A stretch of DNA of 64,000 bases from Spirochaetota bacterium (GTDB lineage Bacteria; Spirochaetota; UBA4802; UBA5550). The notes beneath the pieces were generated by a model that saw only the letters and a program-made list of their open reading frames with translations, was not told where the DNA came from and did not search any database. This document shows, piece after piece, positions 7,661-11,128 of this stretch; position 1 is the stretch's first letter, and every line of letters begins with the position of its first letter. The stretch covers positions 45 through 64,044 of the forward strand of contig WRGT01000071.1 in assembly GCA_009787025.1 (NCBI GenBank), read 5' to 3'. The translations under genes were made by a program, and so were the position numbers.

Positions 7661-8712
7661 TTACCTCTCTCAATATAGTCTAATATATATTCGGTAAGCT
7701 CATCATAGTCTATTTTTTTAATTACACTTCTGCCAATCCCGTTAAGGAGAACAAAATCAACGCCGTCCGTATCTCTTTTTTTATCGCTCCGTACTGCATC
7801 TATTATCTCGGATATATTTTTTTTATCTGCAACCTCATTAAGCGCAGCAGGAAGTCCGAAATATTTAAGTATATCAACAATCTCTCTTTCAACAGATAAA
7901 CTTAAAAGTCCCGAATCTCTTGATATATACAGAGCAAAAGAGATACCAATGGCGACTGCAAATCCATGCTTCAAAGATTTAACCTTTTCTATTCCATGCC
8001 CCAGAGTGTGACCAAGGTTTAGAATTTTTCGCACACCCGTCTCCTTTTCATCCTCTTCAACTATCTTAGCCTTAAACTTTACGGATTTATATACAGCCTC
8101 AGAGATAATATCCTCATTACGTTTAAGCAGCTTTTCTCTGTTATCCGAAATAAATTGAAACAGACCGTCATTATCTAAGCAGGAAGTTTTAATCAATTCG
8201 GCTATGCCGTTTATATACTCATCATCGGGAAGGGTCTTTAACATACTGTGATCGCATATTACAAATTCAGGCTGATTTATTGTTCCTATCATATTCTTCA
8301 AGCCGTCGATATTGACTCCGTTCTTACCGCCAACGCTTGCATCGACCTGTGACAGAAGACTTGAAGATATAAACCCAAAATTTAATCCGCGCATATATAT
8401 TGAGGCTGCAAATCCTGCAATATCCGATACAACTCCCCCTCCTATTCCAAGAATAAATGTCTTCCTGTCACACCGGAGCTCAATGAGTTTTTTAATAATA
8501 TATTCTATCGTTGAGATATTTTTTATCTCTTCGCCCGTACCAATAACTATTGTTCGATAGTGCGAAAACAATCCGGAGTATAATCTATTAACATTTTCAT
8601 CGGTAATTATCACCGTGTTTTCTATTGAGGCGTAATTGTTAATGTTCTCTATTGATTCCCCAATCTTTACTATCGAGCTGCTACTGCCGGCAGTTATTAC
8701 GATCTCTTTCAA
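7657..8712 (-). CDS. aroB: 3-dehydroquinate synthase
   Basis: GGGVVSDIAGFAA and NLGHTLGHGIE motifs. Confidence 0.9.
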   Translation of the reverse strand: MKEIVITAGSSSSIVKIGESIENINNYASIENTVIITDENVNRLYSGLFSHYRTIVIGTGEEIKNISTIEYIIKKLIELRCDRKTFILGIGGGVVSDIAGFAASIYMRGLNFGFISSSLLSQVDASVGGKNGVNIDGLKNMIGTINQPEFVICDHSMLKTLPDDEYINGIAELIKTSCLDNDGLFQFISDNREKLLKRNEDIISEAVYKSVKFKAKIVEEDEKETGVRKILNLGHTLGHGIEKVKSLKHGFAVAIGISFALYISRDSGLLSLSVEREIVDILKYFGLPAALNEVADKKNISEIIDAVRSDKKRDTDGVDFVLLNGIGRSVIKKIDYDELTEYILDYIERGN

Positions 8713-8733
8713 TTTATTCCTCTGTATATGTTT

Positions 8734-9552
8734 TCATGAATCTAAAGAATCGATAAACTTTTTTAACTTAAGAACCTTTTCTGTTATACTATAAAACTGT
8801 TCAGGCGTGAGCTGTTGATCTGCATCGCTCTTTGCCTCTTCGGGATTTATATGGACCTCAATTAAAAGTCCGTCTGCGCCTGCGGCAACAGAGGCTAAGC
8901 ACATAGGTTCAATGAGGCTTAGTTTACCTGTCCCATGTGACGGATCTACCATAATGGGAAGATGAGTTAATTCCTTCACCGCCGGTATAATGCTAAGGTC
9001 AAGGGTATTTCTTGTATATGTCTCAAAGGTTCTTATCCCCCTTTCACATAATATTACATCGGGATTTCCTTCGGCTAATATATATTCGGCGCAGTTAAGC
9101 CACTCTCTAAGCGTTGAGTACATTCCTCTTTTTAAAAGTATAGGTTTTTTGGATTTACCCACCTCTTTAAGGAGTGAAAAATTCTGCATATTCCTTGCGC
9201 CTATTTGTAAAATGTCGGCATACTCACACACCCAGGAAACATCTCTTGGGTCTATGACCTCTGTAACTATTGGAAGACCTGTTTGCTCCTTAGCCTTCTC
9301 AAGAATCTTAAGTCCCTTTAAACCCAAGCCTTGAAAATCGTATGGAGACGTGCGCGGCTTAAAAGCTCCGCCTCTTAACATATTGCCATTCCCCTTTTTT
9401 ACAGCCTCTGCAGTCTGCATAGTCTGCTCCTCACTCTCAACAGAACATGGACCTGCAATAATTACAAAATCTTTTCCAATAGTCGAATCGCCTATTTTAA
9501 TTGTACTCCGCTCTTTAAAATCATTTAGTTTTACAAGTTTAAGATTTTTCAT
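8734..9552 (-). CDS. aroF: 3-deoxy-7-phosphoheptulonate (DAHP) synthase, type I-beta, catalytic core only
   Basis: 272 aa, KDO8PS/DAHPS I-beta-like ([16 protein letters not shown]). No N- or C-terminal regulatory domain. GGAG lies 9 nt upstream of the ATG. Confidence 0.85.
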
Positions 9553-9602
9553 CTATATTCTCCGTAACATCTATATTCTCTTTAATTTAACTAAAAGCAT
9601 TA

Positions 9603-9641
9603 TCAAAAAAAAGCCCTTTGAGTTTTTATCAAAGGGCTTTG
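9603..9641 (-). terminator. rho-independent terminator (attenuator) between the leader ORF and the DAHP synthase gene
   Basis: On the minus strand: AAAGCCCUUUGA, a 7-nt loop, UCAAAGGGCUUU, then a U run. Perfect 12-bp stem, about 50 nt before the aroF start. Confidence 0.8.
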
Positions 9642-9669
9642 CATAATATATTCTTATGATAAAACTCGT

Positions 9670-9783
9670 TCAGTTCATTATATTGTTTCCATAGTAGTAA
9701 AAATAGAAATATCCAAAGCCAAAAGACTTCGGTTTCATCATTGAAAAAATACCATTAACTAATTGTTTTGTCATAGATTTCAT
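9670..9783 (-). CDS. putative Phe/Tyr-rich leader peptide of the aro operon
   Basis: M(KSM)TKQLVNGIFSMMKPKSFGFGYFYFYYYGNNIMN. Start at ATG 9783 or 9774. 9 of 11 consecutive codons are Phe/Tyr. The stop lies 30 nt before the terminator. No strong SD. Confidence 0.6.
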   Translation of the reverse strand: MKSMTKQLVNGIFSMMKPKSFGFGYFYFYYYGNNIMN

Positions 9784-9825
9784 AAGTTTTTAAAAAAATT
9801 CTTTCCAATAGTTTTAATATATCGA

Positions 9826-9854
9826 CCAATTATCTTAACCTGAAAATATGTCAA
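9826..9854 (-). promoter_or_regulatory. candidate sigma70-like promoter for the leader and aro operon
   Basis: Minus-strand TTGACA (9854-9849) followed after 14-16 nt by GATAAT/ATAATT/TAATTG. Confidence 0.35.
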
Positions 9855-9915
9855 ATATTTTTTTATTAAAAAAATATTTTTATCTATTTTATGACTTTTA
9901 TTTTTTAAAGGAGAG

Positions 9916-10098
9916 TCAGGCTCCAATCAGTTCTTTATCATTTTCTACGAGGACCTGCATTTCATGAACAATTTCGCTCAGGGCGGCAAGTCTGACAGCC
10001 ATAGACTCCCGCTTTGTTGCAGGCCGTGAAGTTCCCTGTTCTACAGCGTTAACAACATGATTCACTTCTTCTTCAATATTTATTTCATTATAGTTCAT
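9916..10098 (-). CDS. putative antitoxin (BrnA-like position), 60 aa
   Basis: 4-nt overlap with the upstream toxin-like ORF. Small and acidic. Assignment is by context only. Confidence 0.3.
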   Translation of the reverse strand: MNYNEINIEEEVNHVVNAVEQGTSRPATKRESMAVRLAALSEIVHEMQVLVENDKELIGA

Positions 10099-10355
10099 AA
10101 TACATCTCCATCTGATAATAAGTGGTAAAATTGTTTCCGTAGTTTCATAGCATGAATAACAACCAGACGGTTTTGTTCATCATCTTCAATAGCAATTATT
10201 TCCAACGCAATTCCCTTATGATCAAAACCAACCAGCAGACGTTTTGTCGAAGTCTCATCCATTACCAAATCACTCTGGAAATGCAACAAACAAAAAAGAA
10301 TACTCTCTTTTGATATGCCGTGTTTATATGCGCTGTCCAGAATTACAATTTCCAT
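10095..10355 (-). CDS. putative BrnT-like toxin, 86 aa
   Basis: The pattern KHGISKESI ... RLLVGFDHKGIALEIIAI ... VVIHAMKLRK resembles the BrnT family layout. Toxin-first gene order. Confidence 0.35.
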   Translation of the reverse strand: MEIVILDSAYKHGISKESILFCLLHFQSDLVMDETSTKRLLVGFDHKGIALEIIAIEDDEQNRLVVIHAMKLRKQFYHLLSDGDVL

Positions 10356-10443
10356 ATATTAAAATGATAGACCGCCTTTCATTTAGTTTTTTAGCACGCA
10401 TATTGGTTTACGGGCGGCCGCTCTCGGTCGCCCGCAGACACAT

Positions 10444-10878
10444 CTATTTCCTAATAACAAAAATCCATGTGTACTCATTGTAACCTTCGAGTGTTACATC
10501 GCCTTCACAACCGCTTGTCCCTTGCGCTGTAGCGACAAAGTTATATCTACCGGGTTTAACAATTGCGCTGGAGCTCTTACCTGAGTTTACGGTAAAAGAC
10601 TTATTTGTTGGACCTTTAGCTTTTACATTTATAACTCTGTCCGTATCATTCTGAATTACAAGGGTTGCATCCTTATTTGTTGTTTTTTTAACATCAAAGG
10701 GACCATTTGGTCCGCTGCCAAATGACATATTTATTATAGTCTTAGCAATGTCTTTAACATCATTTGCGTTAAAAAACTTTTTCCCAATAGCGTTAGAGCC
10801 CGAAATTGCAGCTACTGCCATTATTGACACTGCACAAATAAATTTTTTCATTAAATCCTCCCTTACTTTATTTAACAC
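10444..10878 (-). CDS. secreted hypothetical protein
   Basis: 144 aa with an N-terminal signal-like segment KKFICAVSIMAVAAISGSNA. Confidence 0.5.
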   Translation of the reverse strand: MLNKVREDLMKKFICAVSIMAVAAISGSNAIGKKFFNANDVKDIAKTIINMSFGSGPNGPFDVKKTTNKDATLVIQNDTDRVINVKAKGPTNKSFTVNSGKSSSAIVKPGRYNFVATAQGTSGCEGDVTLEGYNEYTWIFVIRK

Positions 10879-11128
10879 TAAAATTTGTATAAATATAATA
10901 ATTAACCATACAAAAAAAGTCTATGTAAAGTATTATTAAAATCTTTAAAAACAAAGGAAAACACATACATAAGAAAATGCAAGCTTTTTAAGTTAAAACC
11001 GACTACCAGCATAGAGCAGCAAATAATACTCCAAATTTTATTTATAGTTTGATAAAATAGTTTTATGACCTTTATACTTAATCTGAAATTCAATATAATT
11101 TTAAGATAAAACTTAACAAATTCTTAAA

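Follow-up and report, generated by a model that had tools for sequence, protein, structure and literature searches.

A probable Phe/Tyr-responsive leader-peptide attenuator ahead of an eight-gene shikimate, Phe and Tyr operon in an uncultured spirochaete

An eight-gene operon for the synthesis of shikimate, Phe and Tyr in a Spirochaetota bacterium is preceded by what is probably a Phe/Tyr-responsive, ribosome-mediated, leader-peptide transcription attenuator. The element lies in contig WRGT01000071.1, of which a stretch of 64,000 nucleotides (nt), referred to here as the window, was analysed. On the strength of the sequence data, this reading is assigned a probability of roughly 0.8. The leader, the terminator and the operon are all on the minus strand, and coordinates are forward-strand positions of the window. 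The parts of the element are as follows:

9848-9864, minus strand: putative -35-like promoter element, a sequence motif consisting of an A-tract followed by TTGACA (9853-9848).
9783-9670, minus strand: leader open reading frame (ORF) of 37 codons plus stop (TGA, 9672-9670), encoding MKSMTKQLVNGIFSMMKPKSFGFGYFYFYYYGNNIMN.
9723-9691, minus strand: regulatory codon run FGFGYFYFYYY, leader codons 21-31, with 4 Phe and 5 Tyr.
9667-9653, minus strand: putative antiterminator 5' strand ("segment 2"), GAGUUUUAUCA (9667-9657) with a U-AAG extension.
9634-9620, minus strand: putative antiterminator 3' strand ("segment 3"), CUU-UGAUAAAAACUC, in which UGAUAAAAACUC is 9631-9620.
9640-9605, minus strand: intrinsic terminator, with a stem at 9640-9610 of 12 perfect base pairs (bp), a 7-nt loop and U8 at 9612-9605.

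The leader ORF begins with an ATG at 9783, and a second ATG at 9774 is an alternative start, as read from the minus strand over positions 9400-10100. Nine of the eleven residues in the run are Phe or Tyr (F/Y), the core being Y25-Y31 at 9711-9691, and the Trp count is zero. These are the features from which the original prediction of an attenuator was made, and the window sequence bears them out. When all 64 kb are translated in six frames, the run is the sole site at which either 7 of 7 or 9 of 11 consecutive residues are F/Y. The predicted hairpin followed by a U run is also present, and it has the sequence AAAGCCCUUUGA / loop UAAAAAC / UCAAAGGGCUUU (9640-9610) with an energy of -16.1 to -16.7 kcal/mol. 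Its stem starts 29 nt past the leader stop and ends 57 nt ahead of the ATG of the DAHP synthase gene (9552). Only three strict terminator-like hairpins occur on the two strands of the window, and this one is the strongest.

Evidence that these parts work together comes from conservation. Genome and metagenome collections were scanned with the DAHP synthase protein, which produced 160 loci. The 27 closest, at 83-97% protein identity, are treated here as the family and comprise 23 distinct members; they come from metagenome-assembled genomes (MAGs) labelled Spirochaetota or "Leptospirales" and from metagenome contigs. One and the same leader layout lies approximately 90-230 nt upstream of DAHP synthase in all 27, so that the short ORF and F/Y run of the original prediction are conserved in relatives. 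The order begins with an invariant A-tract and TTGACA, found in 22 of the 23 distinct members (the exception, L003, has too little upstream sequence) and only once in the window. It continues with an ORF of 32-40 codons starting MKS(L/M)xKQ or similar, the stretch (E/Q)(L/P)K.F.FG and a run such as FFYFYFY, YYYFYFYFY or YFYFYYY. After 4-7 further codons there follow the stop, the box GAGTTTTATCATAAG, a spacer ending in ATATA and a terminator of the form AAAG(C/AC)CCTTTGAT...TCAAAGGG(C/TC)TTTTTTT.

An unbroken ORF is present at each of the 27 loci, and its internal length differences are multiples of three. The F/Y run is also kept, with substitutions that are almost all F to Y, Y to F or synonymous. 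A covariance model (CM) of the segment from stop to terminator scores 69-90 bits in 27 of 27 loci and has no further match in the window. For the terminator, 98.5% of alignment cells from 23 sequences are paired, a value matched by no shuffle, and double changes occur at three pairs (A-U/G-C, G-C/A-U and U-A/C-G). The two window genes directly upstream (9916-10355) are missing from every relative. As the leader is conserved while the upstream genes differ, the element belongs to the aro operon and not to the upstream unit.

The second part of the evidence concerns the alternative structure. The original prediction had noted that the segment just past the stop is complementary to the terminator apex with one bulged A, and this complementarity is retained in every family member. 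In the window, GAGUUUUAUCA starts at the third nt past the leader stop, 23 nt past the last Tyr codon, and forms 11 pairs with UGAUAAAAACUC. The latter sequence, with its extension, takes in the upper part of the terminator 5' arm, the entire loop and the first 2 nt of the 3' arm. Segment 2 is the box GAGTTTTATCATAAG of the family. Pairing between box and apex involves 93-94.5% of alignment cells, as opposed to 26-60% for slid controls. All 23 distinct members can form the duplex (-8.7 to -17 kcal/mol; z of -3.7 to -7.4 relative to shuffled boxes), and the helix starts within -3 to +4 nt of the end of the stop codon in each.

Folding shows how this helix would depend on the ribosome. Truncated transcripts were modelled with the ribosomal A site on the last F/Y codon, a further 12 nt protected and the RNA cut before the terminator 3' arm. 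Here, the box-apex helix is the minimum free energy (MFE) structure in 23 of 23 distinct members, at -4.3 to -12.1 kcal/mol (median -8.0), and is often lengthened by AAG:CUU into the terminator 5' arm. When the footprint is masked in the window sequence, a ribosome at the stop removes the helix and a ribosome on any F/Y codon leaves it in place. The two structures should be mutually exclusive, because a pseudoknot linker of 0-3 nt would have to span 11 bp, a conclusion drawn from geometry.

Further support for the helix came from compensatory variants. In L005, L007, L009 and L087, GCG(G)UUUUAUCA in the box faces UGAUAAA(A)CGC in the apex; this change of CUC to CGC breaks the top pair of the terminator and yet is matched in the box. 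In L015, AUCG pairs with CGAU, and the terminator 3' arm has changed to match as well. In L014, GAGUUC pairs with GAACUC, and in L006, L008 and L089 a U-A pair has become U-G. It is likely, although less so than attenuation as such, that this specific helix is the antiterminator.

Several findings weigh against the proposed switch, and the weakness of the box-apex helix is the main one for the mechanism. In the window, the antiterminated state reaches -7.3 kcal/mol versus -16.7 for the terminator. Folding with and without masking of the leader, as the original prediction had envisaged, gave the expected switch in structure with an unfavourable balance of energies, and because the antiterminated state is so much weaker the switch could only be kinetic. 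Column-based covariation of the helix is also weak, both on a MAFFT alignment and on a CM-fitted alignment: 70-95 of 500 shuffles score as high, the family has little depth, and most of the helix does not vary, double changes being seen at only two of its pairs. The GCG/CGC compensation in L005, L007 and L009 is seen only with a register shift of one nt, and since this 1-nt bulge shift is needed, the column statistic undercounts it. After these weak column statistics, the per-sequence duplex and MFE calculations described above were used for the helix. Moreover, no uniformly conserved "segment 1" was found in the family, as the partners of the box sit at varying positions. No Shine-Dalgarno sequence lies at the usual distance from the start of the leader ORF, the nearest candidate being GGAAAG approximately 20 nt upstream; in this it is unlike DAHP synthase, which has GGAG at -12 to -9. 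The putative -10 element, TAATTG after a 16-nt spacer, is weak. Finally, all the family sequences are from uncultured organisms.

In the proposed mechanism, transcription would start downstream of the A-tract and TTGACA, and the leader would be translated as the RNA emerges. When Phe and Tyr are ample, the ribosome would reach the stop, its footprint would cover the box, the terminator would fold and polymerase would be released at U8. When charged tRNA-Phe or tRNA-Tyr is scarce, the ribosome would stall on codons 21-31. Because the last F/Y codon is 23 nt upstream of the box, the box would stay free during such a stall and could pair with the terminator apex the moment this has been transcribed. 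As the box-apex helix is incompatible with the terminator stem, we propose that folding of the terminator is delayed until polymerase has passed the U run. Interleaving of the Phe and Tyr codons would produce "OR" logic, so that a shortage of either amino acid suffices. Such logic would suit an operon for the synthesis of Phe, Tyr and the precursor that they share, headed by a DAHP synthase without an allosteric domain.

A hairpin and several candidate partners of the box also lie within the leader ORF, and none of these had been described in the original prediction:

9732-9713, minus strand: P1 hairpin inside the leader ORF, CCGAAGUC-UUUU-GGCUUUGG, present in the centroid fold and in the RNAalifold consensus.
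9742-9729, minus strand: candidate "segment 1", AAUGAUGAAACCGA, which pairs with the post-stop box (duplex -12.4 kcal/mol) and is part of the whole-leader MFE structure.

P1 is positioned directly 5' of the Tyr codons, with Phe codons 21 and 23 within its loop and 3' strand. It appears in the RNAalifold consensus of 22 sequences, in which the five core pairs are all retained and the changes are one-sided (CG in 22; UG/CG/UA; GU/GC/AU; AU in 22; GC in 21). The stem persists as CUGAAG/CUUCAG in L014, CUGAAG/CUUCGG in L010 and CCAAAGG/CCUUUGG in L015. In these members the loop and the peptide sequence are both altered, which points to selection at the level of the RNA. Polymerase pause signals classically take the form of a hairpin with a U-rich tract behind it. 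By analogy, P1 and the U-rich F/Y codons behind it might be a pause signal that is released by the translating ribosome and so synchronises the two machines. P1 does not contain segment 2. The consensus also lacks a weaker, AU-rich pairing of the Tyr/Phe codons with AUAAGAAUAU that had been predicted, and that pairing was dropped.

Partners of the box occur at more than one place in the family. In 13 of 23 distinct members, a copy of UGAUAAAAC at leader codons 4-7 (L-I/V-K-Q) pairs with the box. These copies, for example in L002, L005, L007, L081, L082 and L087, are near copies of the terminator apex, and it is this resemblance that allows them to pair with the box behind the stop. In the window, the motif at codons 4-7 (9765-9774) is degraded to AUGACAAAAC, and AAUGAUGAAACCGA pairs with the box instead. 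The upstream partners could represent a "segment 1" that enforces termination in an untranslated leader.

The layout is not confined to this family. A second family of F/Y leaders, unrelated in sequence, is found in Spirochaetia MAGs (L019, L027, L030, L033, L035, L040, L053, L068, L099 and L143), with peptides such as MIVKKCVNFYYFYTPLYNKT. Here, an F/Y run, a few codons, the stop and a box are followed by the terminator GCCGUGAUCACAGGAUCACGGC and a U run. The box, ACCUG..CACAGGU, is complementary to the 5' arm and loop of that terminator. To our mind, this independent recurrence of the layout is the strongest support for the mechanism.

More widely, a mini-ORF with at least 5 F/Y in 7 residues was sought at the 147 DAHP synthase loci for which 200 nt or more of upstream sequence is available. 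Such a mini-ORF is found upstream of DAHP synthase in 65 of the 147 (44%), representing 56 distinct peptides; 37 of 2940 shuffled controls (1.3%) pass the same test. Across the leader families, the F/Y run is the sole shared part and the rest of the peptide is unrelated.

The alternative that survives best accepts leader-peptide attenuation and holds that the decisive alternative structure is something other than the box-apex helix. The box and apex would then serve, for example, in protein binding, or termination would be modulated via P1, via an upstream partner of the box or via ribosome-polymerase coupling. This is unlikely, at something like one chance in ten. The weak and AU-rich character of the helix speaks for it, as do the thin formal covariation, the competing partners AAUGAUGAAACCGA and UGAUAAAAC and the conservation of P1, which is left without an explanation. 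Arguing against it, the box-apex helix is the MFE structure in every truncated transcript and its position relative to the stop is fixed. Compensatory change has occurred at three different pairs, including the CUC to CGC change that costs the terminator a pair. The layout is repeated in the unrelated Spirochaetia family, and since 29 nt separate the stop from the terminator, a ribosome halted there could not occlude the terminator directly.

A still less probable explanation is that the mini-ORF codes for a small aromatic-rich peptide with a function of its own or acts as a translational enhancer for the operon. The hairpin would then be a constitutive partial terminator or an RNA-stability element, and there would be no sensing of amino acids. 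It has been suggested that leader genes increase the translation of the genes behind them (PMC4833913), and the N-terminal MKS(L)xKQ motif shows a fair degree of conservation. That conservation coincides, however, with the RNA motif UGAUAAAAC and is not a property of the peptide. The leader peptide has no match in Pfam or NCBIfam, only the F/Y run is common to the different families and changes within the run are almost all between F and Y. In addition, 117 nt separate the leader stop from the start of DAHP synthase, a gap far larger than those over which reinitiation occurs. The remaining idea, that a chance ORF in an AT-rich spacer (T-rich codons are common because the window is 36% G+C) precedes the terminator of the two small same-strand genes ending 276 nt upstream, is effectively refuted by the uniqueness of the run in six frames, by conservation of ORF, box and terminator in 27 loci with differing upstream genes, by the conserved promoter-like element between those genes and the leader, and by the excess of F/Y mini-ORFs over shuffles. 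Taken with the masked folding, the conservation of ORF, run, terminator and box-apex pairing supports the scheme of the original prediction, attenuation set by ribosome position.

Known attenuators provide a scale for these results. The E. coli pheL-pheA leader was analysed identically to the window as a calibration. The two are alike in having a short leader ORF with a run of end-product codons and then a terminator, ahead of a gene for chorismate mutase/prephenate dehydratase in E. coli. They are also alike in that the antiterminator strand starts 2 nt past the UGA in E. coli and at the third nt in the window, so that a ribosome at the stop masks the strand. The energies are reversed, the antiterminated state in E. 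coli being at about -23 and the terminator at about -16 kcal/mol. E. coli pheL has Phe codons only and controls one gene, whereas the window has Phe and Tyr codons interleaved ahead of eight genes. The E. coli antiterminator pairs with the whole 5' arm and matches the terminator in stability, and the putative one of the window pairs mainly with the terminator apex, at only about -7 kcal/mol. There is no homology in sequence or structure between the two: the Rfam Phe_leader model (RF01859) gives 18.5 bits (E = 7.9) at 9605-9696, below its gathering threshold of 55 bits, and was rejected. No other Rfam model reaches gathering level anywhere in the window. A T-box riboswitch was likewise considered, and no match to it appears even at E <= 10, either in 8500-11000 or in the whole window.

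In the classical model for E. coli trpL, segments pair as 1:2, 2:3 and 3:4, with the regulatory codons in segment 1, which pairs with segment 2. The window resembles trpL in that the choice between terminator and antiterminator would be set by the position of the leader ribosome and in that the hairpin inside the leader may be a pause signal. It differs because there is no conserved segment 1 over the F/Y codons and P1 lacks the antiterminator strand.

Two published cases are closest in gene context. One is the aroR leader (F-Y-F) of C. glutamicum, ahead of the DAHP synthase-led aroF operon. In the summary of Neshat et al. 2014 given by PMC11802643, read-through is said to increase on Phe limitation and Tyr supply to have no effect. 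By that description, both systems have a mixed Phe/Tyr leader before an operon with DAHP synthase as its first gene; C. glutamicum belongs to another phylum, and its run is of 3 codons versus 9 of 11 residues in the window. The other, the uORFC-13-1 motif, reported only from Acholeplasma and environmental sequences, is a predicted Phe upstream ORF (uORF) directly upstream of an intrinsic terminator before aroF. It codes for "at least one" Phe and has one extra conserved base-paired substructure (PMC8632094). This substructure is reminiscent of P1, the comparison with the window covering gene context and general layout. Putative attenuators before aromatic "supraoperons" were noted in 2005 (PMC1173090). 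A literature search gave no description of such an element for Spirochaetes, and one for leader peptides with tyrosine codons found nothing.

Relative to these systems, the window element is distinguished by its long interleaved Phe/Tyr run, by control of the whole common pathway and both branches, by a putative apex-directed antiterminator and by the intra-ORF hairpin. It overturns no concept, being a well-known kind of switch in a new lineage. It does show how the synthesis of aromatic amino acids is probably controlled in an uncultured spirochaete lineage whose first pathway enzyme has no feedback domain. The whole common pathway and both branch enzymes would be under one RNA switch that responds to two amino acids. 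The work also adds a clearly delimited RNA family, represented by 27 loci and a covariance model. This is of use for annotation, which now misses such mini-ORFs, and for understanding the repeated origin of attenuators.

The eight genes downstream of the leader, all on the minus strand, were identified with Pfam and NCBIfam:

9552-8734, minus strand: DAHP synthase, a bare type Ibeta core of 272 aa, with ATG at 9552 and Shine-Dalgarno sequence GGAG at 9563-9560.
8712-7657, minus strand: aroB.
7660-7013, minus strand: aroD, type I.
7011-5710, minus strand: aroE-aroK fusion.
5735-4488, minus strand: aroA.
4491-3499, minus strand: aroC.
3521-2418, minus strand: pheA, with chorismate mutase, prephenate dehydratase and ACT domains (CM-PDT-ACT).
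2421-1645, minus strand: tyrA, short.

Because all junctions overlap or have gaps of at most 21 nt, the genes are taken to form one transcription unit, which ends in pheA and tyrA as had been predicted. Sequence comparison indicates that the DAHP synthase is a bare Ibeta catalytic core without an allosteric domain. Its Pfam domain covers residues 18-265 of 272, and its alignment to NCBIfam NF006421 begins at model position 68 of 338. The best relatives in the PDB are the A. pernix and P. furiosus enzymes of 262-276 aa, and the T. maritima and Listeria enzymes align solely downstream of their N-terminal regulatory domains. The original prediction was correct about this core, and its argument from the bare enzyme stands with one small correction: pheA contains an ACT domain, and some enzyme-level feedback is therefore left in the operon.

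Leaders outside Spirochaetia take other forms, in MAGs labelled Desulfobacterales, Clostridiales, Aminicenantes and Micrarchaeota. The simple terminator finder used here misses imperfect stems in several of the non-spirochaete loci, and no terminator is claimed for those. An Rfam search of 20 homologous loci that have no F/Y leader showed no replacement regulator upstream of DAHP synthase, PYLIS elements being found elsewhere only. The survey suggests that F/Y leaders before Ibeta DAHP synthase genes are far commoner, and far more varied, than the handful of cases in print (C. glutamicum aroR and Acholeplasma uORFC-13-1) would imply. A broader proposal is offered tentatively, at slightly less than even odds. 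The window element would be one of a large, undescribed set of dual Phe/Tyr-sensing attenuators, repeatedly invented or remodelled before operons led by a bare Ibeta enzyme in Spirochaetota, Bacillota, Desulfobacterota and Aminicenantes MAGs, and maybe in those of Micrarchaeota. Attenuation would then systematically replace the missing allosteric domain, with a spirochaete variant that is distinct in its intra-ORF pause hairpin and in an antiterminator that attacks the terminator loop.

Two of these leader types have features of their own. In Desulfobacterales-type leaders (L074, L127, L130, L145 and L160; L067, L142, L144 and L159), a short F/Y/W run directly precedes a C-terminus of ...GPP or RAGPP, and another group ends in R(S/R)VHP. 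By analogy, the GPP and RAGPP ends are reminiscent of proline-dependent ribosome arrest motifs. In MAGs labelled Micrarchaeota or archaeon (L047, L048, L055, L065, L075, L076 and L078), an F/Y uORF ending ..FFSFSYRYQENH* lies ahead of DAHP synthase, and the same uORF is present in two unlabelled metagenome contigs (L106 and L108). In its final codons lies the 5' strand of a 13-bp hairpin, completed by the downstream GUGGUUUUCCUGAUG; a U-run terminator was not seen at these loci. Should the archaeal label of the contigs be correct, these loci would be a case of leader-peptide control in Archaea.

Upstream of the element in the window are two small overlapping ORFs on the minus strand, 9916-10098 (60 aa) and 10095-10355 (86 aa), which belong to no Pfam family. 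They lie between the aro leader and a gene at 10444-10878 that, among the relatives, is present in the two closest only. None of the 160 related loci has either ORF, not even the closest, in which the 10444-10878 gene is present, and the two look like a recently inserted two-gene cassette with toxin-antitoxin-like organisation.

Directly after TTGACA, many relatives have a small inverted repeat, for example GACCGATCGGTC, GACTTTGAAGTC or GTTTCT..AGAAAC. Its letters vary among relatives and its symmetry is kept (window 9848-9864 and the equivalent positions of L001-L015 and L081-L091). This repeat could be an operator or a hairpin at the 5' end of the RNA.

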